A stretch of 64,000 nucleotides of DNA from Heterodontus francisci (lineage: Eukaryota), in contig NC_090373.1 in NCBI RefSeq assembly GCF_036365525.1, positions 11,791,221 to 11,855,220 of the forward strand, in the 5' to 3' direction. Shown piece by piece: positions 2,548 through 48,033 of the stretch. Within the stretch, counting starts at the first letter, position 1. Every line of letters begins with the position of its first letter. The notes under the pieces were generated by a model. The model was not told the DNA's origin, searched no databases, and was given only the letters and a program-made list of their open reading frames with translations. The translations under genes were made by a program, and so were the position numbers.

Positions 2548-2916
2548 GGGAAGCGGTGGCATAGTGGTAATGTCACTGGACTGGTAATCCAGAAGCTTAG
2601 GCTAATGCTCTGGGGACATGGGTTAGAATCCCACCATGGCAGATGGTGAAATTTGAATTCAATTAATAAAAATCTGGAATTAAAACCTAATGGTGACCAT
2701 GAAATCATTGTCAATTGTTGTATAAACCCCTCTGGTGTGTTAATGTCCTTACCTGGTCTGGCCTACATGTGACTCCAGACCCACAGCAATGTGGTTGACT
2801 CTTAAAATGCCCTCTGAAATGGCCGAGCAAGCTACTCAGTTTCAAGGGCAATTAGGGATGGGCAATAAATGCTGACTTAGCCAGCGATGTCCACATCCCA
2901 TGAATGAATAATAAAA
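2548..2916 (+). mobile_element. tRNA-derived SINE sharing head, body and tail with the 20133-23376 LINE
   Basis: A box tggcatagtgg 2557-2567 and B-box-like ggttagaatcc 2621-2631; body matches 20220-20431; tail matches 23300-23376. Confidence 0.9.
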
Positions 2917-3116
2917 CCCCTCAGATTTAATGTAAGTGGCAAATGAACCAGAGGCGAGCTGAGGAAACCTTTATGCAGTGAGTTGTTATGATCTGAAATG
3001 CACTGAAAGAAGCAGAATAGAGTCACAGAGAGATATAGCACTGAAACAGTCCCTTCGGCCCACCGAGTCTGTACCGACCAACAACCACCCATTTATACTA
3101 ATCCTACATTAATCCC

Positions 3117-5891
3117 TGGGGGATAATGCTGGGGGACTTTAATGCCAGGGTTGGGGCCGACCATGACTCATGGCCCTCCTGCCTTGGGCGCTATGGCGTT
3201 GGAAGGATGAATGAGAACGGGCAGAGACTGCTTGAGTTGTGTACCTATCATAACCTCTGCATCACCAACTCGTTCTTTCACACTAAACCCTGTCACCAGG
3301 TTTCATGGAGGCACCCAAGATCACGTCGTTGGCACCAGCTAGACCTCATTGTCACAAGGCGAGCCGCCTTAAACAGTGTTCAAATCACACGCAGCTTCCA
3401 CAGTGCGGACTGCGACACCGACCACTCCCTGGTGTGCAGCAAGGTTAGACTCAGACCAAAGAAGTTGCATCATTCCAAGCAGAAGGGCCACCCGCGCATC
3501 AACACGAGCAGAATTTCTCACCCACAGCTGTTACAAAAATTTCTAAATTCACTTGTAACAGCCCTTCAAAACACTCCCACAGGGGATGCTGAGACCAAGT
3601 GGGCCCACATCAGAGACGCCATCTATGAGTCAGCTTTGACCACCTACGGCAAAAGTGTGAAGAGAAATGCAGACTGGTTTCAATCTCATAATGAAGAGCT
3701 GGAACCTGTCATAGCCGCTAAGCGCATTGCACTTTTGAACTACAAGAAAGCCCCCAGCGATTTAACATCCGCAGCACTTAAAGCAGCCAGAAGTACTGCA
3801 CAAAGAACAGTTAGGCGTTGCGCAAACGACTACTGGCAACACCTATGCAGTCATATTCAGCTGGCCTCAGACACCGGAAACATCAGAGGAATGTATGATG
3901 GCATGAAGAGAGCTCTTGGGCCAACCATCAAGAAGATCACCCCCCTCAAATCTAAATCGGGGGACATAATCACTGACCAACGCAAACAGATGGACCGCTG
4001 GGTTGAGCACTACCTAGAACTGTACTCCAGGGAGAATGCTGTCACTGAGACTGCCCTCAATGCAGCCCAGCCTCTACCAGTCATGGATGAGCTGGACATA
4101 CAGCCAACCAAATCGGAACTCAGTGATGCCATTGATTCCCTAGCCAGCGGAAAAGCCCCTGGGAAGGACAGCATTACCCCTGAAATAATCAAGAGTGCCA
4201 AGCCTGCTATACTCTCAGCACTACATGAACTGCTTTGCCTGTGCTGGGACGAGGGAGCAGTACCCCAGGACATGCGCGATGCCAACATCATCACCCTCTA
4301 TAAAAACAAAGGTGACCGCGGTGACTGCAACAACTACCGTGGAATCTCCCTGCTCAGCATAGTGGGGAAAGTCTTTGCTCGAGTCGCTCTGAACAGGCTC
4401 CAGAAGCTGGCCGAGCGCGTCTACCCTGAGGCACAGTGTGGCTTTCGTGCAGAGAGATCGACTATTGACATGCTGTTCTCCCTTCGTCAGATACAGGAGA
4501 AATGCCGTGAACAACAGATGCCCCTCTACATTGCTTTCATTGATCTCACCAAAGCCTTTGACCTCGTCAGCAGACGTGGTCTCTTCAGACTACTAGAAAA
4601 GATCGGATGTCCACCAAAGCTACTAAGTATCATCACCTCATTCCATGACAATATGAAAGGCACAATTCAACATGGTGGCTCCTCATCAGAGCCCTTTCCT
4701 ATCCTGAGTGGTGTGAAACAGGGCTGTGTTCTCGCACCCACACTTTTTGGGATTTTCTTCTCCCTGCTGCTTTCACATGCGTTCAAATCCTCTGAAGAAG
4801 GAATTTTCCTCCACACAAGATCAGGGGGCAGGTTGTTCAACCTTGCCCGTCTAAGAGCGAAGTCCAAAGTACGGAAAGTCCTCATCAGAGAACTCCTCTT
4901 TGCTGACGATGCTGCTTTAACATCTCACACTGAAGAATGCCTGCAGAGTCTCATCGACAGGTTTGCGTCTGCCTGCAATGAATTTGGCCTAACCATCAGC
5001 CTCAAGAAAACGAACATCATGGGGCAGGATGTCAGAAATGCTCCATCCATCAATATTGGCGACCACGCTCTGGAAGTGGTTCAAGAGTTCACCTACCTAG
5101 GCTCAACTATCACCAGTAACCTGTCTCTAGATACAGAAATCAACAAGCGCATGGGTAAGGCTTCCACTGCTATGTTCAGACTGGCCAAGAGAGTGTGGGA
5201 AAATGGCGCACTGACACGGAACACAAAAGTCCGAGTGTATCAGGCCTGTGTCCTCAGTACCTTGCTCTACGGCAGCGAGGCCTGGACAACGTATGCCAGC
5301 CAAGAGCGACGTCTCAATTCATTCCATCTTCGCTGCCTTCGGAGAATACTTGGCATCAGGTGGCAGGACTATATCTCCAACACAGAAGTCCTTGAAGCGG
5401 CCAACATCCCCAGCTTATACACACTACTGAGTCAGCGGCGCTTGAGATGGCTTGGCCATGTGAGCCGCATGGAAGATGGCAGGATCCCCAAAGACACATT
5501 GTACAGCGAGCTCGCCACTGGTATCAGACCCACCGGCCGTCCATGTCTCCGTTATAAAGACGTCTGCAAACGCGACATGAAATCGTGTGACATTGATCAC
5601 AAGTCGTGGGAGTCAGTTGCCAGCATTCGCCAGAGCTGGCGGGCAGCCATAAAGACAGGGCTAAATTGTGGCGAGTCGAAGAGACTTAGTAGTTGGCAGG
5701 AAAAAAGACAGAGGCGCAAGGGGAGAGCCAACTGTGCAACAGCCCCAACAAACAAATTTCTCTGCAGCACCTGTGGAAGAGCCTGTCACTCCAGAATTGG
5801 CCTTTATAGCCACTCCAGGCGCTGCTTCACAAACCACTGACCACCTCCAGGCGCGTATCCATTGTCTCTCGAGATAAGGAGGCCCAAAAGA
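3117..5891 (+). mobile_element. RTE-clade LINE, 5'-truncated, young
   Basis: Perfect 11-bp TSD acattaatccc (3106-3116 and 5892-5902); short 3' UTR ending aaaagaa; inserted inside a V-SINE. Confidence 0.95.
3126..5840 (+). CDS. RTE LINE ORF: C-terminal half of the AP endonuclease, reverse transcriptase and C-terminal Cys/His finger
   Basis: 904 aa uninterrupted; motifs GDFNA, LDLIV, DTDH (APE); YRGISLLS, FIDLTKAFD, GVKQG, LFADD (RT); CSTC...HSRIGLYSH. Confidence 0.93.
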   Translation: MLGDFNARVGADHDSWPSCLGRYGVGRMNENGQRLLELCTYHNLCITNSFFHTKPCHQVSWRHPRSRRWHQLDLIVTRRAALNSVQITRSFHSADCDTDHSLVCSKVRLRPKKLHHSKQKGHPRINTSRISHPQLLQKFLNSLVTALQNTPTGDAETKWAHIRDAIYESALTTYGKSVKRNADWFQSHNEELEPVIAAKRIALLNYKKAPSDLTSAALKAARSTAQRTVRRCANDYWQHLCSHIQLASDTGNIRGMYDGMKRALGPTIKKITPLKSKSGDIITDQRKQMDRWVEHYLELYSRENAVTETALNAAQPLPVMDELDIQPTKSELSDAIDSLASGKAPGKDSITPEIIKSAKPAILSALHELLCLCWDEGAVPQDMRDANIITLYKNKGDRGDCNNYRGISLLSIVGKVFARVALNRLQKLAERVYPEAQCGFRAERSTIDMLFSLRQIQEKCREQQMPLYIAFIDLTKAFDLVSRRGLFRLLEKIGCPPKLLSIITSFHDNMKGTIQHGGSSSEPFPILSGVKQGCVLAPTLFGIFFSLLLSHAFKSSEEGIFLHTRSGGRLFNLARLRAKSKVRKVLIRELLFADDAALTSHTEECLQSLIDRFASACNEFGLTISLKKTNIMGQDVRNAPSINIGDHALEVVQEFTYLGSTITSNLSLDTEINKRMGKASTAMFRLAKRVWENGALTRNTKVRVYQACVLSTLLYGSEAWTTYASQERRLNSFHLRCLRRILGIRWQDYISNTEVLEAANIPSLYTLLSQRRLRWLGHVSRMEDGRIPKDTLYSELATGIRPTGRPCLRYKDVCKRDMKSCDIDHKSWESVASIRQSWRAAIKTGLNCGESKRLSSWQEKRQRRKGRANCATAPTNKFLCSTCGRACHSRIGLYSHSRRCFTNH

Positions 5892-9244: not shown

Positions 9245-11072
9245 AAATGAAAGCAATATACTGCAGATGCCGGAAATCTGAAATAAAAATAAAAAGTGCT
9301 GGAAATACTCAGCAGGTCTGGCAACATCTGTGGAGAGAGAAGCAAAGTTAACGTTTCAGGCCTGTGACCTTTCATCGGAACTGGCAAAGGTTAGAAAAGA
9401 ATTAGGTTTTAAGCAAGTCAAGGGGAGAGGGGTGGGGAAGGGGAAGGTGTTTGATAGGGCAGAGGGCAGGAGAGATTAAATAACAAAGCTGTCATGGGAC
9501 AAAGGCAAGGAGTGTGTTAAAGCTTGTGGTGAAAGACAAAGTATTAATTCAAAGAGAGTTTTAATGGCAGAATAATGAACAGCTCTGACTCAACGAAAAG
9601 CAGGCACATGGTTAAAATATAAAATATTAAAGAAAAAGGCCTGAAGTTATTAAACTCAATGTTCCATCCGTAAGGCTGTAGAGTGCCTAATTGAAAGATC
9701 AGGTGCTGTTCCTCGAGCTTGCATTGATGTTCACTGGAACACTGGAGCAGGCCAAGGACAGAAATGTTGGCATGAGAGCAGGGGTGTGTGTTGAAATGGC
9801 AAGCAACTGGAAGATCGGGGTCCTGCTTTCGGACTGAGCGGAGGTGTTCCACAAAGCTGTCACCCAATCTGCGTTTGGTCTCCCCAATGTAGAGGAGACC
9901 GCACTGTGAGCAGCGAATACAGTATACTAAATTGAAAGAAGTACAAGTAAATCACTGCTTCACCTGAAAGGAGTGTTTGGCACCTTGGGTAGTGAGGAGA
10001 GAGGAGGTAAAAGGGCAGGTATTACACCTCCTGCAGTTGCATGGGAAGGTGCCATGGGAAAGGGACGAGGTGTTGGGGGTAATGGAGGAGTGGACCGGAG
10101 TGTTATGGAGGGAAAGATCCCTTCAGAATGCTGACAGGGGAGGGGAAGATGCATTTGTTGGTGGCATCAGGCTGGAGATGGCAGAAATGGCGGAGGATGA
10201 TCCTCTGGATGTGGAGGCTGGTGGGATGGGGTGGAAAGTGAGGACAAGGGGAACCCTGTCATAGTTCTGGGAGGGAGGGGAATGGGTGAGGGCAGAAGTG
10301 TGGGAAATGGGCTGGACACGGTTGAGGGCCCTGTCAATCACAGTGGGGGGAAATACTCAGTTGAGGAAAAAGGAAGACATATCAGAAGTGCTATTGTGGA
10401 AGGTAGCATCATCAGAGCAGATGCTTCGGAGTAAGAGAAACTGGGAGAATGGAATAGAGTCCTTACAGGAAGCAGGGTGTGAGGAAGTGTAATCAAGGTA
10501 GCCATGGGAGTTGGTGGGCTTATAATGAATATTAGTGGATAGCCTATCCCTAGAGATGGAGACAGAGAAGTCGAGGAAGGGATGGGAAGTGTCGGAGATG
10601 GACCATAAAGGTGAGAGAAGGGTGGAAATTGGAAGCAAAGTTGATAAAGTTTTCCAGTTCAGGGCGGGAGCAGGAAACTGCGGACTGAACATTGAGTTCA
10701 ATAACTTCAGAGCATGACTGGCCTTTTTAAAAATATTTTATTTTTTAACCATGTCTGCTTTTCATGTAGTCAGAGCTGCTCATTATTCTGCTATTAACAC
10801 TCTCTGGATGAATGCTTTGTCTTTCACCACAAGCATTAACACACTCTTTGCCTTTGTCCCAGGACAGCTTTGTTATTTAATCTCTCCTGCCCTCTGCCTT
10901 ATCAAACATCTTCCCCTTCCCCACCACCCTCCCCTTCACTTGCTTAAAATCTAATTCTTTTCTAACCTTTGCTAGTTCTGAAGAAGGGTCACAGACCTGA
11001 AAAGTTAACTTTGCTTCTCTCTCCACAGATGCTGCCAGACCTGCTGAGCATTTCCAACACTTTTTGTTTTTA
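9245..11072 (-). mobile_element. Penelope-like retroelement, 5'-truncated, with inverted pseudo-LTRs
   Basis: Minus-strand frames encode a PLE RT C-terminus (YKPTNSHGYLDYTSSHP..KDSIPFSQF) and a GIY-YIG region (FVEHLRSV..PVACHFN); about 9285-9670 is the inverted copy of 10681-11072; 11-bp TSD with one mismatch (9234-9244 and 11073-11083). Confidence 0.88.
10970..11015 (+). ncRNA. Minimal hammerhead ribozyme-like motif in the Penelope pseudo-LTR
   Basis: CTGAAGA, then stem ggtc/aca/gacc, then GAAA; a second copy lies on - at about 9345-9385 (ccgatga aaggtc aca ggcct gaaac gtt). Both copies deviate from the ideal core. Confidence 0.6.
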
Positions 11073-11683
11073 AATACTCTGTGGACATGGGTTTAAATCC
11101 CACCATGGCAGCTGGTGGAATTCAAATTTAATTCATAAATTCAATTATTTAATTGTTAAAAATCTGGAATTGAAAGCTAGTCTCAGTAAGGGTGACCACG
11201 AAACTACCGCCAATTGTTGTAAAAACTCATCTGGTTCACAAATGTCCTTTAGGGAAGGAAATCTGCCGTCCTTACCTGGTCTGGCCTACATGTGACTCCA
11301 GACCTAGAGCAATGTAGTTGACTTTTAACTGCCCTCTGAATTCAGTTGCCAAGGGCAATTAGGCATGGACAACAAATGCTTCCTTGCCAGCGATGCTCAC
11401 ATCCCATGAAACAAATAAAAAAAACAAAAATGCACTTTCTATGTTGGTGCAGCATGTTTATTATAAAATAGACACTCATTATTTTGCATTTTCCATGATC
11501 TTTACTGGAGCTAGTTATTTTCATGACTGCTGTTAGGTTCTGTGTTTACATTGCCACACTTTGCATTAAGGAATCACAGTTTGTAAATTTGGCAGTTGAT
11601 GTGCTCAGCATTGCTTTTGGCTAAAATGTGACTCACTTGTCCTTCCTTGTTTCATCCCGCTTTCCCTCATGTTTTTTGTTTAG

Positions 11684-11716
11684 GGTGATAGAGGAAAACT
11701 TGGTCCCAAGGGTGCT
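11684..11716 (+). CDS. COL9A1: COL9A1(-like) coding exon, 33 bp (GDRGKLGPKGA)
   Basis: Long pyrimidine tract plus tag acceptor, gtaagt donor; corresponds to recalled human GDIGLPGPKGS; the split triplet continues into the next exon. Confidence 0.9.
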
Positions 11717-12064
11717 GTAAGTATTGTACAAATTTCTGCTTCACTCCTTTTACGTTTTCACTTAGTGAACTGGGTCTTCTTAAGCTACAGAAGTGTAGAC
11801 TTTGAGGCGATTTGATTGATCTTTAAAACAATGGAAGGATTGGATTCAGTCCAAGTGCATAAACTAATTCATTTAGCTAGATTAGGCTGCTGGTGGTTGG
11901 GAGGACAGCACAATGCTGTTACTTTTGCACCATGACCAGATGGGACTATTGATGGACCAGCTGGCCTTTTCCTCTCTGTTATTTTCATACGTTCTCAGAC
12001 AACATGTTTGCAGGACACAGTGGCTCCTGTGTAGTTGCAAATCATGCAATGTGTTTAGAGACAT

Positions 12065-14275: not shown

Positions 14276-15612
14276 TAAACACATCTATCAAATCTCCTCC
14301 TTACCCTTCTTTGTTCTGAGGAGAACAACCCCAGTTTCTTCAGTCTATCCATGTAACGGTAATCCCTCATCCCTGGAACCATTCTGGTCAGTCTCTTCTG
14401 TACCCTCTCCAAAGCGTTCACCACCTTCCTAAAGTGTGGTGCCTAGAAACAGCCACAGTTCTCTAGATGGGGCTGAACTAATGCTTTATAATGGTTTAGT
14501 ATAACTTTGTAGGCTCAACACGAGTTACATATTGTAGCATTTTAGCAGCACAATAATACCTTGTGCGCTCCATGATATCACTCATTAATCTGCTGCTGTT
14601 CTTATAGAATACAGTCTAGTATGAGCAGCACCATGAGATATCAGCTGTAGGTAGTGGAACTGGTGCAACACAAACTTGAGAAGCTCTCACTGGAACCTCA
14701 GTCGCACCAGTCATATGATTGACATTTGGATGCGGGTGAACTTAGAGGAAACTCTGACCCATGCAAAGAATTTCAGTGTGAAGCAGCATCAAATACTGTT
14801 GGAGTGCTGTTGGACCACGTAATCACACATGTGCAGAACCTTGCTGGGCTGAGCAGAGAGTGCTGTAAAGTTGGCAGCATAATTCAACACTGCCAACTCT
14901 GCTTTGTCTGACTGGCACCTGTGATATAACAATTCCATTTTTTACATTGAGCCAGGATCAGAAACTCCATGCAATGGAAGTAAATGGGATATTCCTTGCA
15001 ATACTAGGAGCTCTTGGCAAGGATTAACGTTTTGAGTTTGCTCCTCCTAATCTTCAAATATACCACAAATGCCTCCTTTCCTACTGCCTCGCTGCTTTGC
15101 AGTTATGACCCATGGCATTGTCTCCCCTTCTAACTCTGCCAACCGGATCACGACCATGACAAGAAAGGATGCAATTTTCAAGCATCAAATGTGGAGAGAT
15201 AGCGCTCAATAACTTATCACATCATGGTTCAATCTGCAGCCTGTTGAGATGAGTCAGTGGTGGCCCTTCGAGGATTTCAAACAGAGCAAGTACCTTCCCT
15301 GAAGTTATGTGACATTGTGGTTCCCAATCTTAAAGGGGGGAAGAGAAAAGGCAAATTGAGTGCTGTGATTTGATAATGCCAAACTCTGGTTTTAAAAGCG
15401 TTAAGATTGCAGACAGAAGAAAAAAATACTAAGAGTGATATGTAGTCCCACACTCTGGAGGTCCTGGGATGGGTGGATGACAGTAAAGTGAGCCTTGATT
15501 TCAACACTGAGAAGATACAGAGACAAGAAGCTCGCGATTGCAGATAAGAGGCTGAAATTTGTACTTGCTTAAAGCTCCACCGATTCTGAGATTTTGCTTT
15601 TCAATTTTCCAG

Positions 15613-15759
15613 CTTGGTAAACCTGGTGAGGTTGGACTTCGTGGCAAGGATGGGATTCGTGGTCTGCCGGGTGTACAGGGCCCCCTCGGCGCTATCGGAC
15701 CACGAGGTTTACAAGGAGATCGTGGGCTTACCGGCCTACCTGGGAACCAGGGACCCCCT
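15613..15759 (+). CDS. COL9A1: COL9A1(-like) coding exon, 147 bp, end of COL2 helix ([11 protein letters not shown]...GNQGPP)
   Basis: ttttccag acceptor and gtaatt donor; 49 codons of Gly-X-Y; visible in ORF 15559..15924. Confidence 0.93.
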
Positions 15760-15881
15760 GTAATTATGAGTACAATTTTATGTTTGTTCATGCTCCACAG
15801 CATTCATTACATTTGCTTTACAAGTTCTGAGTTTTGCTTAGTCATTTGCTTTAATTCTTCTTTTAAAATGACTGTTCCTAG

Positions 15882-15936
15882 GGTAACGAGCCTACAGACC
15901 AACACATTAGACAAGTATGCATGAGAGTAATGCAAG
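15882..15936 (+). CDS. COL9A1: COL9A1(-like) coding exon, 55 bp, NC2 domain ([18 protein letters not shown])
   Basis: cctag acceptor and gtgagt donor; nearly identical to recalled human GRAPTDQHIKQVCMRVIQ, which is diagnostic for the alpha-1(IX) chain. Confidence 0.95.
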
Positions 15937-16074
15937 GTGAGTACCACTGTCTCAGGCTAAAATGCGTTTAAATAATCTACTATTTTGCAACAAAACACAG
16001 ACCTCTTATAGCACAAAGTAACAAAAGTTCAGTTAAAACCACCACAGCTCCTCACTAAAACACTTTAATACATC

Positions 16075-16795
16075 ATTACCCACCTGTATTATAGACAGAT
16101 TGATACTACATAATCCACCTGTGATATACACAGACTGATACACCATAATCTGCCTGTAATATACTCAGACTGATATACCAGTATCCACCTGTAGTATACA
16201 CAGACTGATACACCATAATCCACCTGTAAAATACACATACTGATATATCATTACTCACCTGTAATATACACAGACAAATATACCATAACCAACCGGAATA
16301 TACACAGACTGATATACCATAATCCACTTGTAGTATACACAGACTGATACACGATAACCCACCTGTAATATACACAGACTAATATACCATTACGCACCTG
16401 TAATATACACTGAATGATATACCATAATGCACAAGCAATATACATAGACTGATACACCATAATGCACCTGTAATATACACAGACTATATACTATAATCCA
16501 TCTGTAATATACACAGACTGATATACCATTACCAACCTGTAGTATACAAACTGATGCACCATAACCCTCCTGTAATATACAGACTGATATACCATAATCT
16601 GCTGTATTATACACAGACTGATATAACATAATCCGCTTGAAATATACACTGACTCTACACCATAATCCACCTGTACTATACACAGACTGATGTACCATAA
16701 CCCACCTACAATATACATAGACTGATACACCCCAATGCACCTGTAATATACAAAGACTATATTACTAATCAACTGTACATTCAGTGGATGCACCA
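16075..16795. repeat. Minisatellite, unit about 35-37 bp (ccacctgtaatatacacagactgatataccataat), roughly 19-20 diverged copies
   Basis: Directly visible tandem units without unique spacers. Confidence 0.92.
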
Positions 16796-18251: not shown

Positions 18252-19785
18252 TGGTTCAATGAAGAGTGCAGGAGAGCATGCCAGGAGCAGCACCAGGCGT
18301 ACCTAAAAATAGGGTGCCAACCTGGCGAAGCTGCAACACAGGACTAGATACATGTGAAACAGCCGAAGCAGCATGCTATAGACAGAGCTAAGCGATCCCA
18401 CAACCAACGGATCAGATCAAAGCTCTGCAGTCCTGCCATATCCAGTCGTGAATGTTGGCGGACAATTAAACAACTAAACAAAGGAGGAGACTCCACAAAT
18501 ATCCCCTTCTTCGATGATGGGGGAGCCCAGCACATCAGTGCAAAAGACAAGGCTGAAGCATTTGCATCATTGTCGGCCAGAAGCGCCAAGAGGATGATCC
18601 ATCTCGGCCTCTTCCTGAGGTCTCCAGCATCACAGATGCCAATCTTCAGCCAATCCGATTCACTCTACATTGATATCAAGAAATGGCTGAAGGCACGGGA
18701 TACAGGAAAGGCTATGGGCCCTGACAACTTGCCAGCTGTAGTACTGAAGACTTGTTCTCCAGTATTAGCTGCACCTATAGCCAAGCTGTTCCAGTACAGC
18801 TACAACACTGGCATCTACCCAACAATGTGGAAAACTGTCCAGGTATATCCTGTCCTCAAAAATCAGGAAAAATCCAACCCGGCCAATTGCCACCCCATCA
18901 GTCTACTGTCAAACATCAGCAAAGTGATGGAAGGTGGCACTGACAGTGCTATCAACCGGCACTTACTCCGCAATATCCTGCTCACTGATGCTCAATTTGT
19001 GTTCTGCCAGGGCCACTCAGCTCCATAGCTCATTACAGCCTTAGGACAAACATGGACAAAAGAGCTGAATTCCAAAAGTGAGGTGAGACTGACTGCCCTT
19101 GACATCAAGGAAGCATTTGACCGAGTATGGCATCAAGGAGCCCTAGCAAAACTGAAGTCAATGGGAATCAGGGGGAAAACTCTTCACTGGCTGGAGTCAT
19201 ACCTAGCACAAAGGAAGATGGTTGTGGTTGTTGGAGGTCAATCATCTTAGCTCCAGGACATCACTGCAGGAGTTCTTCAGGGTAGTGTCCTAGGCCCAAC
19301 CATCTTCAGCTGCTTCATCAATGACCTTCCTTCAATCATAAGGTCAGAAGTGGGGATGTTCGCTGATGATTGCACAATGTTCAGCACCATTTTCAACTCC
19401 TCAGATACTGAAGACGCCCATGTCCAGATGCAGCAAGACCTGGACAGCTTTCAGGCTTGGGCTGATAAGTTGCAAGTAACATTCACGCCACGCAAGTGGC
19501 AATGACCATCTCCAGCAAGAGAGAATAAAACCTTCCCTTGACATTTAATGGCCTTCCCATCACTGAATCCCCACTATTAACATCCTAGGGGTTACCATTG
19601 ACCAGAAACTGAACTGGAGTAGCCATATAAATACCGTGGCTACAAAAGCAGGTCAGAGACTGGGAATTCTGAGGCGAGCAACTCACCTCCTGTCTCCCCA
19701 AAACCTGTCCACCATCTACAAGGCACAAATCAGGAGTGTGATGGAATACTCTCCACTTGCCTGGATGAGTGCAGCCCCAACAATA
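18252..19785 (+). mobile_element. Internal fragment of the same CR1-group LINE family (RT region)
   Basis: Colinear with about 21388-22910; MFADD region present; stops and frameshifts. Confidence 0.9.
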
Positions 19786-20140
19786 CCCAATACCGGGCTA
19801 GGCAGAAGCGGGTTTGCCACCAACTTTTATGTCGGTGGCGAATTCCCATCCGCCTAAGGAAAAATCCAGCCCAATAGATTAATAGATTAAGTGTATGGGC
19901 AAAACTGTGGCAAATGGATTTCAATGTAGGCCTTTGTAGGGTCATCCACTTTGGATCTAAAAAGGATAGAACTGGGTACTTTCTAAATGGCGAAATGCTA
20001 GAAATTCTGGAGTCCAAAGAGACTTGAGGGTCCAGGTACACAGACCATTAAAATACTATGAACAAGTACAGAATATAATCAAAAAGGCTAATGGAATGAT
20101 GGCCTTTGTATATAGAGGACTGGAATACTAGAATAGGTGG

Positions 20141-20215
20141 TGGCGTAGTGGTATTGTCACTGGACTACTAACCCAGAGACCCTGGGTATTGGTCTGGGGA
20201 CATGGGTTCGAATCC
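20141..20215 (+). promoter_or_regulatory. Type 2 RNA polymerase III internal promoter (A box TGGCGTAGTGG, B box GGTTCGAATCC)
   Basis: Direct match to the canonical tRNA A-box and B-box consensus. Confidence 0.85.
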
Positions 20216-20435
20216 CACCACAGCAATTAATAAATCTGGAATTAAAAAGCTAGTCTAATGATGGCAATGAAACCATTGTCGATTGTTGTAAAAACCATCT
20301 GGTTCACTAATGTCCTTTAGGGAAGGAAATCTGCTGTCCTTACCTGGTCTGGCCGACTTGTGACTCCAGACCCACAGCAATGTGGTTGACTCTTACATGC
20401 CCTCTGAAATGGCCTAGCAAGCCACTCAGTTGTAA

Positions 20436-23313
20436 CTAACTGCTACGAAGTCAATAAAAAGGAATGAAACCGGACGGACCACCCGGCATCGACCTAGGAA
20501 CCGGAAACGACAATGGCAAACCCAGCCCTGTCGACCCTGCAAAGTCCTCCTTACTAACATCTGGGGGCTTGTGCAAAAGTTGGGAGAGCTGTCCCACAGA
20601 CTAATCAAGCAACAGCCTGACATAGTCATACTCACAGAATCATACCTTACAGACAATATCCCAGACACTGCCATCACCATCCCCGGGTATGTCCTGTCCC
20701 ACCGACAGGACAGACCCAGCAGAGGTGGTGGCACAGTGGTATACAGTAGGGTGGGAGTTGCCCTGGGAGTCCTCAACATTGACTCTGGACCCCATGAAGT
20801 CTCATGGCATCAGGTCAAACATGGACAAGGAAACCTCTTGCTGATTACCACCTACTGCCCTCCCTCAGCTGATGAGTCAGTACTCCTCCATATTGAACAG
20901 CACTTGGAGGAAGCACTGAGGGTGGCAAGGGCACAGAATGTACTCTGGGTGGGGGACTTCAATGTCCATCACCAAGAGTGGCTCGGTAGCACCGCTACTG
21001 ACCGAGCTGGCCAAGTACTAAAAGACAATATATGCCAGAAAGGGTATGTGGCAGGTGGTGAGGGAACCAACAAGAGGGGAAAACATACTTGACCTCGTCC
21101 TCACCAGATGCATCTGTACATGACAATAGTGGTAGGAGTGACCACTGCACAGTCCTTGTGGAGACAAAGTCCCACCTTCACATTGGCGATACCCGCCTTC
21201 ATGTTGTGTGGTACTACCACCGTGCTAAATGGGATAGATTTCGAACAGATCTAGCAATGCAAAACTGGGCATCCATGAGGCGCTGTGGGCCATCAGCAGC
21301 AGCAGAATTGTACTCAACCACAAACTGTAACCTCATGGCCCAGCATATCCCCACTCTACCATTACCATCAAGCCAGGAGACCAACCCTGGTTCAATGAAG
21401 AGTGCAGGAGAGCATGCCAGGAGCAGCACCAGGCATACCTCAAAATGAGTTGAAACCTGGTGAAGCTACAATACAGGACTATCTGCATGCCAAACTGCAT
21501 AAGCAGCATGCAATAGACAGAGCTAAGCGATCCCATAACCAACGGATCAGATCTAAGCTCTGCAGTCCAGCCACATCCAGTCGTGAATGGACAATTAAAC
21601 AACTAACTGGAGGAGGTGGCTCCACAAATATCCCCATCCTCAATGATGGGGGAGCCCAGCACATCAGTGTGAAAGATAAGGCTGAAGCATTTGCAACAAT
21701 CTTCAGCCAGAAGTGCCGAGTTGATGATCCATCTCGGACTCCTTCTGCAGACCCAGCTTCACAGGTGCCAGACTTCAGCCAATTCAATTCACTCCGCATG
21801 ATATCAAGAAACGACTGAAAGCACTGGATACTGCAAAGGCTATGGGCCCTGACAATATTCTGGCAATAGTACTGAAGACCTGTGCTTCAGAACTTGCCGC
21901 GCCCATAGCCAAGCTGTTGCAGTACAGCTACAACACTGGCATCTACCCTGCAATGTGGAAAATTGGCAAGGTATGTCCTGTACACAAAAAGCAGGACAAG
22001 TCCAACCCGGCCCATTACAGCCCCATCAGCCTACTCTCAATCATCAGTAAAGTGATGCAAGGTGTCATCAACAGTGCCATCAAGCGGCACTTGCTTAGCA
22101 ATAACCTGCTCAGTGACGCTCAGTTTGGGTTCCGCCAGAGCCACTCAGCTCCATATCTCATTACAGCCTTGGTTCAAACATGGACAAAAGAGCTGAATTC
22201 AAAAGGTGAGGTGAGAGTGACATCAAGGCAGCATTTTACCGAATATGGCATCAAGGAGCCCGAGCAAAACTGGAGTCAATGGGAATCAGGGGAAAAACCC
22301 TCCGCTGGCTGGAGTCATACCTAGCGCAAAGGAAGATGGTTGTGGTTGTTGGAGGTCAATCATCTGAGCTCCAGGACATCACTGCAGGAGTTCCTCAGGG
22401 TAGTGTCCGAGGCCCAACCATCTTCAGCTGCTTCATCAATGACCTTCCTTCAATCATAAGGTCAGAAGTGGGGATGTTCGCTGATGATTGCACAATGTTC
22501 AGCACCATTCGTGACTCCTCAGATACTAAAGCAGTCCGTGTAGAAATGCAGCAATACTTGAACAGTATCCAAGCCTGGGCTGATAAGTTGCAAGTAACAT
22601 TCACGCCACACAAGTGCCAGGCAATGACTATCTCCAACAAGAGAGAATCTAGCCATCTCCCCTTGACATTCAATGGCATTACCATCGCTGAATCCACCAC
22701 TATCAACATCCTAGGGGCTACCATTGATCAGAAACTGAACTGGAGTAGCCATATAAATACCATGGCTACAAGAGCAGGTAAGAGGCTGAGAATCCTGCGG
22801 CAAGTAATTCACCTCCTGACTCCCCAAAGCCTGTCTACCATCTACAAGGCACAAGTTAGGAGTGTGATGGAATACTCTCCACTTGCCTGGATGGGTGCAG
22901 CTCCAACAGCACTCAAGAAGCTCAACACCATCCAGGACAAAGCAGCCCGCTTGATTGACACCCCATCTACAAACATTTACTCCCTCCACCACTGACGCAC
23001 AGTGGCAGCAGTGTGTACCATCTACAAGATGCCCTGCAGAAACGCACCAAGGCTCCTTAGTCAGCACCTTCCAAACCCGCGACCTTTACTAACTAGAAGG
23101 ACAAGGGCAGCAAATGCATGGGAACATCACCACCTGCAAATTCCCCTCCTAGTCACACACCATCCTGACTTGGAACTATATCGCCGTTCCTTCACTGTCG
23201 CTGGGTCAAAATCCTGGAACTCCCTTCCTAACAGCACTGTGGGTGTACCTGCCCCACATGGACTGCAGCGGTTCAAGAAAGCGGCTCACCATCACCTTCT
23301 CAAGGGCAATTAG
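20436..23313 (+). pseudogene. Frameshifted APE-RT ORF of the tRNA-headed LINE
   Basis: ORF pieces 20571..21092, 21089..21448, 21402..21818, 21842..22324, 22279..22995 and 23002..23313 join into one endonuclease plus RT protein. Confidence 0.88.
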
Positions 23314-23879
23314 TGCTGGGCAATAAATGCTGGCATAGCCAGCGACGCTCACATCCCATGCATGAATAAAAAAAAACAATTGAGTAGAAATCGTGCTTCA
23401 GCTTAACAAAGCCCTGGTTAGACCACACCTGGAGCACTGTGAGCAGTTCTGGGCACTGCACCTTAGGAGGAATATATTGGTCTTGGAGGGAATGCAGTGT
23501 AGATTTACCAGGATGTTGCATGGATTCCAAAGGTTAAATTATGAGAACAGATCACACAAACTAGGGTTGTATTCTGTGATATTAAGGGGAACAAATAGAG
23601 TAGATAAGAGAGAATCTATTTCTGCTGCTTGGGGACTCTAAGACCAGGTGTCATAGTCTAAAAATTAGAACCAGAACTTTCAGGAGTGAAATTAGGAAAC
23701 ACTTCTACACATAAAGGATGATAGAAGTTTGGAACTCTCTTCTGCAAACAGCAGTTGATGCTAGACCAATTGTTAATTTTAAATTGGAGATTGATAGATT
23801 TTTGTTAAGCAAAGGTATTAAGGGATATGGGGCAAGGGAGGGTATATGGAGTTATGGAATGTGAAAAGTTGGATTAGGT

Positions 23880-24906: not shown

Positions 24907-25371
24907 TTTTTAAAATTCATTCTTTGGATGTGAGTGTCACTGGCAAGGCCAGCATTTAACGCCCTTCCCTAATTGCCCATGAAAAGGTGGTGGTGAACTA
25001 CCTTTATGGACCATTGCAGTCCATTTGGTATTGGTACACCCACAGTGCTTTTTTCTGTAGTGGTTTGATACAACTGAGTGGCTTGCTAGGCCATTTCAGA
25101 GGGCAGTTAAAAGTTGTGGGTCTGGAGTCACATGTAGGCCAGACCAGATAAGGACGGCAGATTTCATTCCCTGAAGGACATTGGTGAACCAGTTGGGTAT
25201 TTACAGCAATCTGGTAGTTTCATGAGTCTTCATGAGACTAGCATTTTATTCCAGATTTATTTATTAATTGAATTTAAATTACCCGAGCTGCCGTGATGGG
25301 ATTTGAACTCATGCCTCTGGAGCATTAGTCCAGGCCTCTGGATTACAAGTCCAGTAACATTACCACTATGT
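24907..25371 (-). mobile_element. Longer variant of the same SINE, keeping extra LINE-derived sequence
   Basis: Reverse complement reads ...gccactcagttgtatcaaaccactacagaaaaa|agcactgtgggtgtacc...gggcaattaggg. Confidence 0.82.
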
Positions 25372-40310: not shown

Positions 40311-43300
40311 ATGATATATAAATTTAATTTTTTATCTTTCTTATACAATGTGTTGACACTGAATCATTTACCAACTCACCCACCCAAATATTAGACTGCT
40401 TGCTTTTTTTCAGGCACTGACCCCCATTCTCTGTATATTTACTGTTTTAACACTAATAATAGACATGAATTCACATTGATGGTTAAAGTTTATTGGGCTT
40501 TTTTGAATTACAGGGATAATTACATGGTGCTCAAGCTCCCAGTGGAGAGCTGTGCTCATCGGGAGCACAGGTCAGAAATAACACTGTGCACAGTTCTAAG
40601 GCTGAATTTGTAGAACAGGATCAGGAACCCAACGCCTGGATGATTTCCAGGTCCCGACCCCCCCCCCCCCCCCCCCACCCCACCTCAGCTGTGTCGTTAA
40701 TGCACTGTGATCTTCAAATGTTAATGCCCTAATTGGGTAGAAGGAGAGCTCGGTGCCCAATTAGTGATGTCAAGTGTCCACAGGCGATGGGAACTACCTG
40801 CAGAGTGTGAGCAGCAAAGACAGGCTGCAGCCGTGATGGGGCCTGCTGCTACCTTGCCGATGAGAGCAGGCAGCTCCATGGAGAACCATCAGAATAATGA
40901 GGTGAGGCAGCGCTTCCAAAATAAAAAAGGTCCTGCACTTGGCCCAGTGCGAGATCCCCCTGAACCCAAAACATTTCATCTTCCAACACTAAAATTTGTT
41001 CTCTGCCCACTGTGAGCTTGACAATTGTTCACTATTGTGCACCAGACTAGGCCGGCTTGCCAGAATCACCATTGAAAATTACAGTGCGGAGCCCCCGATC
41101 CCGGGCTCCTTAACGAGCTCCTCCATGAGCTTATTGGGCCATTAGTTGGAAGAGAGCAGCTTCTCTATTCCCTCCCCCCATCCTCACATTGAAAATGGCC
41201 AACATACCCGAAGGTGTCAGATTCTAGAGACAACCTCCGGCACTGCGATTTTCAAATTGCATCTGTACAACTTAAGGAGCTGTTCCAGCCTCTGGGCCTA
41301 ACCTTCTTACCCAGCCTGACCTGAAGACAGTACTTTGCTCTTCACTTGCCATGTGCAACATCATGGAAGATCAATTATAACTCATAAATTTTCATAAAAG
41401 ATGAAAGAAATTACTTCATCAAACTACCAACTTGTTACAGTTAGAATAGAATCTGCCAACATCTTGTGATTGGTTCAGAATAGACCAATAATGGACTCAT
41501 GACTATGGTCAGAACATATGGATTCAGGGGACAAGTAGCAGAATGGATAGCAAGCTGGATACAGAACAAAAAACTGAGAACAGGGGTTAAAGGCAGCTAC
41601 CCAGACTGACAGGAATCAGTGCTGGGACCACTGTTGTTCATCATTTATATAAACGATTTGGAGTTGGGAATCAGAAGTACAATTCCATAATTTGCAACAG
41701 GAGAAGAAACTGGGTGGCTTTACTCCTGGAAAATCAAAACTTGAAAGGAATCATTCTTATTTTGAAAAGTTAGGGGGTAAGTGTTTATCTGGGCACTGAA
41801 AAGAGGGAAAGAAAACTTGCTCCACAGCATCACCCAGTGGCTGAAATCTGCGACAAACTGGCACTCTGCCTTTAACAGGGGAATGATACTGTATCGCTCT
41901 GTGATGGAGGAGTACTAAGGTGGAAAAGATCTATTGCAGCACTAACTGCAACCATTACAGGCAACTGAAGACATTACAAGTAGGCATGGTCACAGTTAAC
42001 CATGAAAACTTCACAGGACATGCTGATTTTAATGACACATTACTGATCGATTTGCAGTGATTTTGGAATGGGGCAAGTTCAAATTCAGCAGGCTCAGAAA
42101 GTGGGGTTGGGTAGGGGACTGCAATAACTGGACCCAGACAGGGGAGGAGATGATTGAGGGGATTGTGGATGGAGGAGTAGGAGGGGTGGGGGGGGGGGTG
42201 GGGGTGGGGGTGGTGGTTGCCTGGTCAAGGATAATGGGGAAAGACAGAGGAGGAGGATCAGGGAGGTGCAAAGGTACAAGGAGAGGCGAGGTTTCACCCA
42301 TCATGTTTTGAATCCACCCAGGATTACAGGTATCTCTGAGATGTACTACGTTCCTCGGACTGCTGCTCTCGCTGCATCCTGAGATCCACACTAAGTGCCC
42401 TGCGCCGCCATATGTAAACACTGGACCTCTCTCTCCTGAAGCACCGACCCATCTTATCTCAAAGCTGTTCTGCTGCACAGTTTCATTTCATCCTTTGTCT
42501 TATCCAAGGCATTAACAAAAAGCTTTTTCTCTTCCTTTCAGATGTTAAGGAACACAAGCTCCAGCAGCTCATGGGTACCAACGCCCCTCCAGATCCTTCT
42601 TCCCTTTCACTTCCCTCTGACTTCATCCCTTCGCCTAATCTGACTCCTTGACATGCATTCACAATACCCTCTGACCTTCCCATTTTTGACAATGAATGAT
42701 CTGTAATTAACGAAGGACTATGTTTTATCCCCTTACTCCTCCACCTCAATGAATTTCGCGCTCAGCATGACATTGAGCTCTTCTTCCATCGTCTATGCCT
42801 CTGGGCTCACTTCTTTGACCAGGAGTCCTCCCCTCAACCAGCGGACCCTTTCACTCACCTCCAGTATTCTCCCTCCACCTGGACCCCTTCCTCTGGCCTC
42901 TTACCCACTCTTGATCTTTTCATTGAGAACTGTTGGTGTGTCCGCTCCCCTCATTCATTCTAACCTGTCCCCCTCCAAACTTGCTGCACTCTGCTCTATC
43001 ATGTCCAACCCTGACATTGTGATCAAACCTGCTGACAAGGGTGGTGCTGTTGTTGTCTGGCGTAGCGACCTCTACTTTGCAGACACTGAGCGCCAACTCT
43101 CAGACACTTCTTCCTACTTCCCCTTGGACCATGACCCCACCACTGAACATCAAGTTACTGTCTCCAGGACTGTTACTGACCTCATCTCCTCCAGCGATCT
43201 TCCCTCTACAGCTTCCAAACTAATAGTCCCACAACCCCGGACAGCCCGCTTCTACGTCCTCCCCCATATCCACAAACAGGATTGTCCTGCTGGACCCATC

Positions 43301-43341
43301 TTTTCAGCCTGTTCCTGCCCCACTGAACTTATTTCTTCTAT

Positions 43342-44331
43342 TGTTATGAAAGTGCCTATGTGTTTTGTTAAATATAATTTTTGAGGATTCATTTTTGAAA
43401 GATTGAAGAAATGTTAAACTTTGGGGTTTTCAAAGGGGGTCATATAAAGGTCACTACTTTGAAAACCAGTCCCTGGAAATGTTTTGAAAAGGGTCACTGA
43501 GAGGTCTTGTGAGGAAAACAAGCCTTTCTGGGAAAGCACCTGACTTCCAGCTCAATAAACAACAGAGAACTTTGGACACCTGGAGAAGTTGTTTACAAAG
43601 AAGTGACAGGTCAAGATTGATGAAGGCCAAAAAGTTGATCACCTATTGGTTTCGCTTTTGAATTGTTTCGAGTTGGGGTTGAACTGTATAAAAAAGGAGA
43701 GAACTTCCAAGGAGAGAGAGAACTTCAAAGGAGAGAATAGAATTCCCAAAGAAGGAGAGAAGATCATAACCCAGGTCAGCTTTCCAGCACCTCTCTAACA
43801 GACCCTGAGAAATCCACTGTGTCAACTCATCTCATCTCCTATCTTCGAAGAAAAACCTGTTAAATTACTTCTCAATACTTCCTGACAAGAACTGTTCTAA
43901 AAGATCCCAGTGACCTGTCTACGTGCACTCGGAGGCCAAACTATACGCTAGTTTTGGAACACAACATATCTCATCTGCTGTTTCTTCAAGAGTGAGCAAG
44001 TATTCAGCCCAAGTGTTTTTCTGTCTGTAATAGAGCTCCAGAAACAAAATTCCCTTTATTTTTCCAGTTAGCCGGTGTAAGTGTGTATGAGTGTGAGGAG
44101 CTAAGGTAAAACGGGAACTTTAATATTTCAATCTGTGTGTTTATGGTTTACTTCATTACTGGTTAAGATTTGTTTTATAGTAAACTAATAATTTTGTTGT
44201 TTAATAAACCTGGTTAGTGTGTTTTATTCTGGGAAAAGTATCAGTAAGTGGGAAAATTTAAATATGTGTTGTGACCTGTGGAGAAGTGGGACTAGAATGA
44301 ACAGTGCACCTCTCCTGCATCAGTCGTAACA
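43342..44331 (+). mobile_element. Solo LTR related to 37956-38871
   Basis: TGTTATGA...TCGTAACA; TSD ctat/ccat; the 3' half is clearly similar to the 38 kb LTR. Confidence 0.85.
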
Positions 44332-44829: not shown

Positions 44830-47505
44830 ATGAACATACGATCGTATGAATTAGGAGCAGAAGTAGGCCATTCGGCCCCTCAAGCCTGCTCCGCCATTCA
44901 ATAAGAACATGGCTGATCTGTTTGTGTCTCGAACTCCACTCTCCCATCTACCCCCAATAACCTTTGATTCCCTTGCTTAACAAGAATCTATCTACCTCCA
45001 CCTTAAAAATATTCAATGACCCCATTCAATGACCCCGCCTCCATCACCTCCTGAGGCACAGAGTTCCAAAGTTGCTCAACTGTCTGAGAAAAAAAATTCT
45101 CCTCATCTCTGTCCTAAAAAGGCGACCACTAATTTTAAAACAGTGCCCCCTAGTTCTGGACTCACCCACAAGAGGAAACATCCCCTCCACATTCACCTTG
45201 TCAAGACTGTTCAGGATCTTATATACTTCAATCAAGTCTCCTCTCACTCTTCTAAACTCCAGTGAAAACAAACCCAGTCTGTCCAACCTTTCCTCCAAAG
45301 ACAACCCGCTCATTCCAGGTATCAATTTAGTAAACCTCCCCTGAACTGTCTCCAACGCATTTACATCCTTCCTTAAATAGGGAGATCAAAACTGCACACA
45401 GTATTCAAGATGTGGTCTCACCAATGCCCTGTATAACTGAAGCATAACATCCTTACTTTTATTTTCAATTCCTCTTGTAATAAAGGATAGCATTCCATTA
45501 GCTTTCTTTATTACTTGCTGTACCTGCATACTAACTTATTGTGACTCACTCACTAGAACACCTAGATCCCTCTGCACCCCGGAATTCTGCAGTCATTCTC
45601 CGTTTAAGTAATACACTGCTTTTTTATTCTTCCTGCTAAAGTGAACAACTTCACATTTACTCACATTATACTTTGTGCAATAACCCTTTATGTTGAACCT
45701 TGTCAAATGTCTTCTGGAAATCCAAGTACAGTATGCCAACAGGCTCCCCTTTATCCACTGTGTATGTTACTCAAAGAACAAAAGAACAAAGAACAGTACA
45801 GCATAGGAACAGGCCATTTGGCCCTCCAAGCCTGCGCCGATCTTGATGCCTTAAAACCTTCTGCACTTCCGGGGGGAAAAAATTCAATAAATTGGTTAAA
45901 CATGATTTCCCTTTCACAAAACTGACTATTCCCGACTACCTAGAAATTTTTTAAGTGCTCAGCTATAACCTCCTTAATGATCGATTCTAACACTTTCCCC
46001 ACGACAGGCATCAATCTAACTGGTCTATAGTTACCTGTTTTCTGCCTCTCACCCTTCTTGAATAGAGGGGTTATATTTGCTACTTTCCAGTCTGATGGAA
46101 CCTTTCCAAAATTAACACCAATGCATCTACCACCTCATTAGCCACCTCTTTTAAGACCCTCGGGTGTTATCCATCAGGACCCAGGGACTTGTCCGTCTGC
46201 AGCTCCATCAGTTTGCTCAGTACTGCTTCCCTGGTGATTGTAATTTCACCAAGTTCCTCTTTTCCTTCCACCTCCTGATTTACAGCTATTACTGGAATGT
46301 TTTTTGTATCCTCGATAGTGAAGACAAAAGCAAAATATTTGTTCCTTTTATCCACCATTTCCTTATTATCGACTGTTAACTCACCATTCACACTCTCTGG
46401 AGGACCAACACTCACTTTACTTACTCGTTTCCTTTTTAAATACCCATAATCCTTAGACAGCACCTTCCAAACCCGTGACATCTACCACCTCGAAGGACAA
46501 GAGCAGCAGATGCATGGGAACATCACCACCTGCAAGTTCCCGTCCAAGCCACACACCATCCTGACTTGGAACTATATCACCGTTCTTTCACTGTCGCTGG
46601 GTCAAAATCCTGGAACTCCCTTCCTAACAGCACTGTGGGTGTACCTACCTCACATGGACTGCAGCGGTTCAAGAAGGCAGCTCACCACCACCTTCTCAAG
46701 GGCAATTAGGGATGGGCAATAAATGCTGGCCTTGCCAGTGATGCCCACATCCCATGAATGAATAAAAAAAAAGAAACTCTTGCTAACCATTTTTACATTT
46801 CTAGCTAGCTTCCTCGCAGACATTAATTTATTTCTCCTAATTAACGCTTTAGTCATTCTCTGTCGTTCTTTATATTCTGACCAATCATCTGACCTGCAAC
46901 TCACCTTTGCGCAATTATGTGCTTTTTCCTTAAGTTTGATGCTTTCCTTAACTTCTTTAGTTAACCACAGATGGTGGGTCCTCTCCTTAGAAATTTTCTT
47001 TACAGTAGGAATATACCTATTCTGAGTATTCTGAAATATCCCCTTGAATGTCTGCCATTGCTTCTCTATTGATCTATCTCCTAGCCTCGTAACCCAGTAC
47101 ACTTCAGCTAGCTCAGATTTCATGCCCACATAGTTGCCCTTATTTAAGTATAAAATACTAGTCTTAGACCCACTCTTCTCTCTTTCAAACTGGATGTAAA
47201 ATGCAATCATATTGTGGTCGCTGCTACCTAGAGGTGCCTTTTCTGTGAGGTCATTAATTAATCCTATCACATTACACAATACCAAGTCTAATATAACGTG
47301 CTCTCTGGTTGGTTCCAGAATGTGCTGCTCTAAGAAACTATCTAGAAAGCATTCTATGAATTCCTCATCCAGGCGACTATTGCCAGTCTGATTTTTCCAG
47401 TTTATATGGAGATTAAAATTATCCATGATTATTGTCATCCCTTTATCACAAGCACCCAATATTTCTTCTTGTATACTTTGTCCTACATTGTGATTACTGT
47501 TAGGG
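44830..47505 (-). mobile_element. Large classical CR1 ORF2 fragment (APE to 3' end) with deletions and nested inserts
   Basis: IIMDNFNLHINW..PTREHVILDLVL..LGSSDHN (APE); FSLEFRRVRGDLIEVYKI (3' part). Confidence 0.88.
46449..46772 (+). mobile_element. 3' fragment of the same LINE family inserted into a classical CR1
   Basis: Tail plus A-run; the host CR1 reads KSF|YGYLK across the insertion with no TSD. Confidence 0.88.
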
Positions 47506-48033
47506 GGAAATGGTGGATAAAAGGAACAAATAATTTGCTTTTGTCTTCACTATCGAGGATACAAAAAACATTCCAGTAATAGCTGTAAATCAGGAGGTGG
47601 AAGGAAAAGAGGAACTTGGTGAAATTACAATCACCAGGGAAGCAGTACTGAGCAAACTGATGGAGCTGCGGACTGACAACTCCCTGGGTCCTGGACTACA
47701 CCCTAGGGTCTTAAAAGAGGTGGCTAATGAGGTGGTAGATGCATTGGTGTTAATTTTTCACAGAGCTGTTAGGAAGGGAGTTCCAAGATTTTGACCCAGT
47801 GACAGTGAAAGAACGTCGTATATAGTTCCAAGTCAGGGTGGTGTGTGACTTGGATGGGAACTTGCAGGGGTGATGTTCCCATGCATCTGCTGCTCTTGTC
47901 CTTCGAGGTGGTAGAGGTCACGGGTTTGGAAGGTGCTGTCTAAGGAGTATGGGTATTTAAAAAGGAAAAGAGTAAGTAAAGTGAGTGTTGGTTCTCCAGA
48001 GAGTGTGAATGGTTAGTTAACAGTCGATAATAA
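47506..48033 (-). repeat. Inverted, circularly permuted copy of 46108-46637
   Basis: 47506-47758 is the reverse complement of 46108-46362; 47759-48033 is the reverse complement of 46363-46637. Confidence 0.88.

Follow-up and report, generated by a model that had tools for sequence, protein, structure and literature searches.

In the shark Heterodontus francisci, a long interspersed nuclear element (LINE) of the Zenon family opens with a tRNA-derived head and lacks on its sense strand the T-rich motifs at which human RNA polymerase III (Pol III) terminates. A full-length, decayed copy occupies positions 20131-23376 (+ strand) of the window, which is the whole stretch of 64,000 nucleotides analysed here (NC_090373.1, positions 11,791,221 to 11,855,220). 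The predicted A and B boxes of the head, together with a sense strand free of T4, TVT3 and T3VT (V being any base other than T), make it likely that Pol III transcribes this LINE over its whole length and that selection has favoured read-through, which would yield a 3.2-kb protein-coding Pol III transcript.

The window copy differs by 4.5% from the column majority of its family, and its 5' start lies about 2 nt before the 20133 given in the initial annotation of this DNA, i.e. at 20131. One frame (20436-23313, +), interrupted in this copy by frameshifts and stops according to translation, Pfam and the family columns, encodes an apurinic/apyrimidinic-type (APE) endonuclease (EN; PF03372/PF14529) and a reverse transcriptase (RT; PF00078). 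In the column majority of 38 copies this frame is open over 2928 nt, or 975 codons from stop to stop. There is no first open reading frame (ORF1), only 307 nt preceding the EN-RT frame, and the 3' end consists of a short tail and then an A tract, as in the poly-A tail of Zenon. The 38-copy alignment spans 3298 columns, against a length range of 2886-3314 for the published consensuses, and its 5' 400 nt agree by eye with the first 400 nt of seven named elasmobranch Zenon consensuses. By its sequence the element is the elasmobranch Zenon of Stuart et al. 2026 (PMC13343379; CarCar, HypSab, RhiTyp, ScyCan, SquAca), an already published family which, as far as the main text and the first 400 nt of its consensuses go, shares the single APE and RT frame, the lack of ORF1, the poly-A, the length of about 3.3 kb and the head.

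Copies of the family are very numerous. Searching the genome with the 5' 768 nt returned 9342 first-look candidates, 40 of which were scored, and the searches together ranged from 9342 to 12023 such candidates. Loci were taken in sets of 39, 20, 20 and 20, with uninterrupted full-length copies at 22 of the 39 and 15 of one set of 20; the column counts rest on 37 full-length loci and the window copy, and later counts on 50 and 70 copies, part of them partial. Copies differ by 3-5% from the column majority, and the 5' end of the family is sharp: a query internal to the frame recovered 20 copies, of which 12 had the same start, 7 were 5'-truncated and 1 was rearranged, with no alternative common 5' end in the flanks inspected.

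The loss of T-tracts is a property of the family and of one strand only. The column majority of the 38 copies contains no run of four or more T, as the initial annotation had expected of a family consensus, and seven runs of three or more, next to 15 runs of at least four A, 13 of C and 8 of G. The motifs T4, TVT3 and T3VT taken together number 0 on the sense strand, where 14.3 are expected from mononucleotide and 6.8 from dinucleotide shuffles (0 of 1000 shuffles in each case); T4 and TVT3 alone number 0 against 4.3 with dinucleotides fixed (P 0.016). The antisense strand carries 14 T4, 10 TVT3 and 15 T3VT. Human Pol III is reported to stop partly at TVT3, T3VT and T2VT2 and hardly at T3 or T2GT2 (Orioli 2011), and the shortest working terminators in B2 assays were TTTT and TVTTT (Vassetzky 2021). 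Only two T2VT2 motifs survive in the family columns, at 20283-20287 (+) and 22346-22350, and both are T2GT2, the one variant reported as nearly inactive in human extracts (Orioli 2011). Among all 64 trimers TTT is the most depleted by ratio (0.33; the next is 0.68). Internal T4 is absent from 47 of 70 copies, and the only T4 site that recurs (in 9 of the 70) seems to reflect CpG decay following a Phe codon.

Within the coding frame the same loss is seen at sites where T could be used at no cost to the protein. The EN-RT frame has four T3 runs, against 12.9 in synonymous and 10.6 in CpG-aware shuffles (P<=0.0005), and all four are lone TTT codons; T3 runs across codon junctions number 0 against 7.2-10.0 expected. 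At synonymous pyrimidine sites, those before G excluded, T is used at 81 of 250, 26 of 121 and 1 of 35 sites where it would create a run of 1, 2 or at least 3 (32%, 21% and 3%). First-order avoidance of TT alone predicts 6.6 of the 35, and one is seen (P 0.006). Two third-position resampling nulls, B and C, misfit the A and G runs also and were left out of use.

The other LINEs of the same genome do not share this pattern, and the depletion in Zenon exceeds that in both control families, as the initial annotation had supposed. The main control is a young RTE LINE (3117-5891, +; a 5'-truncated copy identified by Pfam and genome search) matched in composition, its T content of 21% being equal to that of the Zenon copy. 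It contains 25 T3 runs and the four T4 runs first reported for it (3733, 4744, 4753, 4804). The RTE family is very young, with 39 other matches at 98-100% identity and intact frames of 1069-1070 codons (L090-L094). For would-be runs of 1, 2 and at least 3, T stands at 68/249, 31/141 and 19/68 synonymous sites in the intact RTE frame, and at 109/167, 42/66 and 39/68 in CR1 ORF2 (majority of 15 copies), so the fall with run length is absent from both. The combined terminator motifs are near expectation in RTE (13 vs 14.8) and above it in CR1 (39 vs 32.4). A wider comparison set was built from 80 metagenomic relatives, of which 59 had a frame of at least 350 codons (21 were dropped), with RTE and CR1 added to make 61; the relatives are not independent, many falling in few clades, and most are richer in T, six being of matching T content. 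Zenon is the lowest of the 62 for T3 (observed/expected 0.23; the others have a minimum of 0.59 and a median of 1.14) and for windows with four T in five positions (0.06; others at least 0.64). One relative, L199, also has no T4 over 466 codons, as chance would give, and it contains TVT3 and T3VT.

Host mutation was assessed from rare, mostly post-insertion C>T changes in the copies. These create runs of at least three T at 0.0114 per site per copy against a base rate of 0.0153 (0.75 of that rate), and the mutation spectrum in the copies is strand-symmetric; host mutation therefore does not account for the 16-fold fall in odds. The purge of Pol III terminator motifs from this tRNA-headed LINE is real, confined to one strand and common to the whole family, and Pol III read-through is probably its cause.

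The idea of read-through was raised in the initial annotation from the window copy, and its counts there can be reproduced: 20133-23376 has one T4 run and seven T3 runs. Seven T3 runs compare with 23.7 in mononucleotide (0 of 1000) and 13.5 in dinucleotide shuffles (P 0.008), and the single T4 run with 4.9 (P 0.035) and 2.1 (P 0.35). That T4 run (22234-22237, +), in the AFD motif, was held to be a private change after insertion, and it is found in 0 of 22 other full-length copies (20 read TTTG, 2 TTG). The contrast drawn with the runs of A loses its meaning: the 16 runs of at least four A are as many as composition alone provides (17.1). A codon-preserving shuffle bears out the depletion for T3 and does not for T4 alone (P 0.09-0.19, codon and dinucleotide), and the use of TTC over TTT for Phe, 14:4 beside 119:70 for the other two-fold pyrimidine codons, is too small a count to judge. 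The claim of selection for read-through is partly upheld: read-through is the best explanation, but the T4 and A-run statistics first offered for it do not carry it, and it is the T3 runs together with the interrupted tracts (TVT3, T3VT) that hold the signal. The two older Zenon copies in the window have one TTTT each, at 19390 and 48588. Avoidance at the level of the amino acid was considered and rejected: Phe makes up 1.8% of the protein, the lowest of the 62, yet the three nearest proteins have 2.4-2.9%. Conserved Phe columns are kept in 9 of 14 cases, like other residues, leaving a weak signal of Phe avoidance.

The head lies at 20136-20226 (+), where ARAGORN calls a tRNA-Ser and Rfam gives a weak tRNA-Sec match (E 0.016, under the gathering score); the window copy has a 20-nt deletion just 3' of it. 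An A-box-like motif at 20141-20151 (+), or +11 from the family 5' end, and a B-box-like motif at 20205-20215 (+), at about +75, match the general patterns for these boxes exactly in 28 and 33 of 38 copies, and the spacing of the predicted boxes from the 5' end is like that of a tRNA. In the first 400 nt, as judged by eye, all seven published shark and ray Zenon consensuses open with the same head, the A box being present in 7/7 and the B box in 6/7 with variable sequence between them. No such head is visible by eye in the first 400 nt of two hagfish consensuses and one coelacanth consensus. ARAGORN, run on 55 of the 80 metagenomic relatives, found no tRNA in them, a weak negative as many of these have no 5' end and the program missed the SINE heads of the window itself. 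The head is followed by a body (20227-20431, +) common to the LINE and to a SINE (short interspersed nuclear element) family. By eye, the part at 20290-20431 is nearly identical in shark and ray consensuses, more so than the head, and it is possibly a structured translation-entry or ribonucleoprotein element.

A LINE must carry its own promoter inside its transcript, and the sole 5' sequence of this one is the head and body, both also present in the SINE. TFIIIC and Pol III would use the boxes of the head, with initiation at the 5' GGG. The polymerase would then read through 3.3 kb, including the A tract, and end in flanking DNA; for the window copy, the stop would be the flanking T-run at 23777. 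A source copy gaining a terminator would produce a short RNA without the 3' tail needed for priming, and would leave no progeny. The uncapped RNA would itself be translated by a non-scanning route, and its ORF2p would act in cis on that RNA without an ORF1. The family-wide joining of head and EN-RT frame, and the SINE family that shares both ends of the LINE, are in support. Alu RNA made by Pol III is reported to retrotranspose without ORF1p, whereas Alu RNA made by Pol II needs it (Kroutter 2009), and this independence suits a LINE devoid of ORF1.

As for translation, the 5' untranslated region, head included, holds nine AUGs upstream of the EN-RT frame, no in-frame AUG precedes EN, and Met does not occur in frame until codon 285, beyond the endonuclease. 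An out-of-frame AUG opens a reading frame of 46 codons (20464-20604, +) overlapping the start of the endonuclease, and 36 of 38 copies contain this AUG, as do, by eye, 6 of the 7 consensuses in the literature. Over the same interval, four of those consensuses show 13 differences from one another, 8 of them (by eye) at third positions of the AUG frame; beyond it, the differences sit at third positions of the EN frame instead. The shift from one frame to the other is a lead for a possible -1 frameshift. Pol III transcripts are reportedly translatable in reporter systems. That the same Pol III RNA is also translated is, on the sequence, a proposition standing at or a little above an even chance. 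The fuller picture is evenly balanced between true and false: an autonomous coding retrotransposon that may have been transcribed by Pol III since before the shark-ray split, as a 3.3-kb uncapped mRNA with 975 codons written around terminators and no in-frame AUG start (perhaps reached by a -1 shift from the short upstream frame), with deletion products that would be ready-made SINEs.

Several observations weigh against transcription by Pol III and selection for it. T4 alone is not significantly reduced, either in the frame (0 vs 2.1 synonymous and 1.5 CpG-aware) or overall (0 vs 1.5-2.1, P 0.09-0.19 in codon and dinucleotide shuffles), and whole-element T3 reaches P 0.06 against dinucleotide shuffles. 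When T3 is regressed on the TT count, 5.4 runs are expected and 4 seen (z -0.75), with no residual, although the regression extrapolates 4 standard deviations and the lost runs themselves lower the TT count; part of the T signal is inseparable from an overall shortage of TT. Equivalent motifs made of C are somewhat depleted too (26 vs 41.5 and 43 vs 57.8, or 26-37%), a single natural copy is weaker (T3 6 vs 9.5, P 0.06), and the low Phe of the element is near that of its three nearest proteins. More than one class of motif was looked at, the choice of terminators coming from Orioli 2011 and Vassetzky 2021, and the terminator rules are those of human and rodent, which may not be those of sharks. 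One lineage is one evolutionary sample. Transcription by Pol III is predicted from the sequence, and translation of an uncapped RNA that lacks an in-frame AUG would call for an explanation of its own. The absence of ORF1 is independent of Pol III, because its loss is clade-wide in Zenon as far as the published main text goes (Stuart et al. 2026, PMC13343379); lepidopteran Zenon, in the published excerpts, lack ORF1 as well and have a short derivative without a Pol III promoter.

Part of this material can be read without Pol III at all. If Pol II made the RNA, the head would be a captured SINE end with another role, and U-tracts would be avoided for reasons at the RNA level, for instance because they act as cryptic splice acceptors, in U-rich decay or in innate sensing. 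In its favour, the coding LINEs that have been studied well are, as far as is known, all transcribed by Pol II or Pol I; in Lepidoptera, Zenon and its deletion derivative function with no Pol III promoter; and TT is generally depleted (76 vs 90). We consider this account unlikely, since RTE, CR1 and the 59 related frames show no such purge, the boxes persist in sharks and a ray despite variation in the intervening sequence (by eye), and the motifs that survive are the ones inactive for Pol III. An account with no selection is the least probable of those weighed: a lineage mutation bias, an RT error bias or a codon-pair preference would strip TT and hence T-runs. The regression on TT, the mildly depleted C-tracts and the z-scores, by which ACA, TGC and CAC are depleted like TTT, agree with it. 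It fails to provide the run-length effect beyond first-order TT avoidance, the 0 vs 6.8 motifs with dinucleotides fixed or the place of TTT as lowest trimer by ratio, and host mutation is strand-symmetric and produces such runs freely.

A third account keeps Pol III and removes translation: the Pol III RNA would be only the template copied into the genome, and the protein would come from capped Pol II transcripts reading through copies. It accounts equally for all the T-tract data, it needs no translation of uncapped RNA, and the abundance of the family makes read-through transcripts plausible. Nine upstream AUGs would still confront the capped RNA, and none in frame would precede EN. The intact 975-codon family frame is also maintained more readily when the RNA that is copied encodes its own protein under cis preference, which is established for L1. 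We regard it as quite unlikely, and retain Pol III read-through of a coding RNA as our preferred reading.

The SINE is a shortened derivative of the LINE. At 30 of 30 loci found with a SINE query, LINE bases ~1-320 are fused to ~3218-end, giving a non-coding element of ~370 nt. The window itself contains four SINE-type copies whose junctions differ; alignment places one with this join at 2553-2916 (+), one with the same head-body-tail build at 11077-11424 (+) and one with an older-type head, a longer tail and a different junction at 24907-25368 (-). The LINE 3' tail common to the SINE lies at 23297-23376 (+) and ends in a short A tract. Contigs of public sequencing runs, whose status as RNA is a guess, contain the family in several organisms, and the same main SINE join occurs in contigs of 3 of 4 runs. 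LINE and SINE copies alike finish at the 3' end in T(n)A(m), where n is 1-9 and n+m is about 10-12. At least four T are present there in 14 of 69 ends of the LINE set and 5 of 22 of the SINE set, which would place a terminator at the very end. The variable T-run was considered as a record of Pol III termination and set aside, as the near-constant T+A length fits T elongation after insertion; it resembles the T elongation reported in ageing A-tails of B2, Dip and Ves (Vassetzky 2021). A DeuSINE identity of the body was rejected, the Deu alignment in the PMC7245038 supplement agreeing by eye over about 10 nt at most, and LF-SINE and Deu-domain identities of the SINE were considered and found no support. 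The element uc_338, which overlaps the LF-SINE 3' end, has no match in the window or 11 loci, and none in G000, where the control likewise matched nowhere.

Known systems share parts of this organization. The R2 element has a single frame, an uncapped RNA not made by Pol II and no reliance on an AUG start, as proposed for Zenon; R2 differs in its co-transcription by Pol I, ribozyme cut, site-specificity and other endonuclease type. The tRNA-derived SINE2 class, T+ SINEs such as B2 included, has an A/B-box head, no internal terminator and a tail rich in A, like the Zenon LINE; these SINEs are short and non-coding, so the Zenon SINE fits the class and the 3.3-kb LINE with its 975-codon EN-RT frame does not. 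Bipartite SINEs and short deleted elements (Bov-tA/BovB, RTE- and Vingi-derived, Persaeus/Zenon) are built, like the Zenon SINE, from the 5' and 3' ends of a LINE, but in those systems a tRNA head is either missing or an addition to the short element, while in Zenon the autonomous LINE itself is headed. RTE-1_DAn and related elements in Repbase are LINEs said to contain tRNA-like sequence (Kojima 2018), and as described they belong to the RTE clade and to an insect, unlike the Zenon LINE. In the main text of PMC13343379 the terms tRNA, promoter and polymerase III have 0 occurrences, so that head and purge go unremarked there; full supplement sequences, subscription journals and Repbase reports may bear on the matter.

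Other observations concern the family and its surroundings. An older truncated Zenon copy, 88% identical by alignment, lies at 18252-19783 (+), and a nest of rearranged Zenon and CR1 at 46175-49047 has near-perfect inverted arms (46175-46527 vs 47506-48033, 97-98%). An independent older subfamily was sought by further searches, and the loci examined belonged to the same Zenon family; flank matches of at least 5 nt, as for target-site duplications, occur in 8 of 38 copies and are mostly chance-like. In a quick RT tree, which held no labelled Zenon references, many metagenomic relatives cluster in few clades, and the matches of a PDB search were confined to distant RTs, those of L1, R2 and introns. 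Pieces of the LINE protein (70-86% identity) occur within the predicted shark host proteins P0010, P0046, P0048 and P0052 and are probably gene-model artefacts. A Gly-X-Y, collagen-like reading stretch at 15556-15924 is likely a host-gene exon by its sequence, in which case the elements would lie in an intron of that gene; a tandem array of ~35-bp units follows at 16007-16760. The fragments at 9544-10737 (-) and 42707-43384 (+) look like what we take to be Penelope-type RT/GIY-YIG elements.

In the usual view, Pol III makes short non-coding RNAs, and LINEs and SINEs are divided into Pol II and coding on one side and Pol III and non-coding on the other. A coding LINE on Pol III, if true, would cross this dividing line, and its deletion would be a direct route from LINE to SINE. 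It would also provide a natural test of the reading length of Pol III and of the translation of uncapped RNA, and the family would represent an in-vivo catalogue of the Pol III terminator motifs that are tolerated and those that are forbidden.

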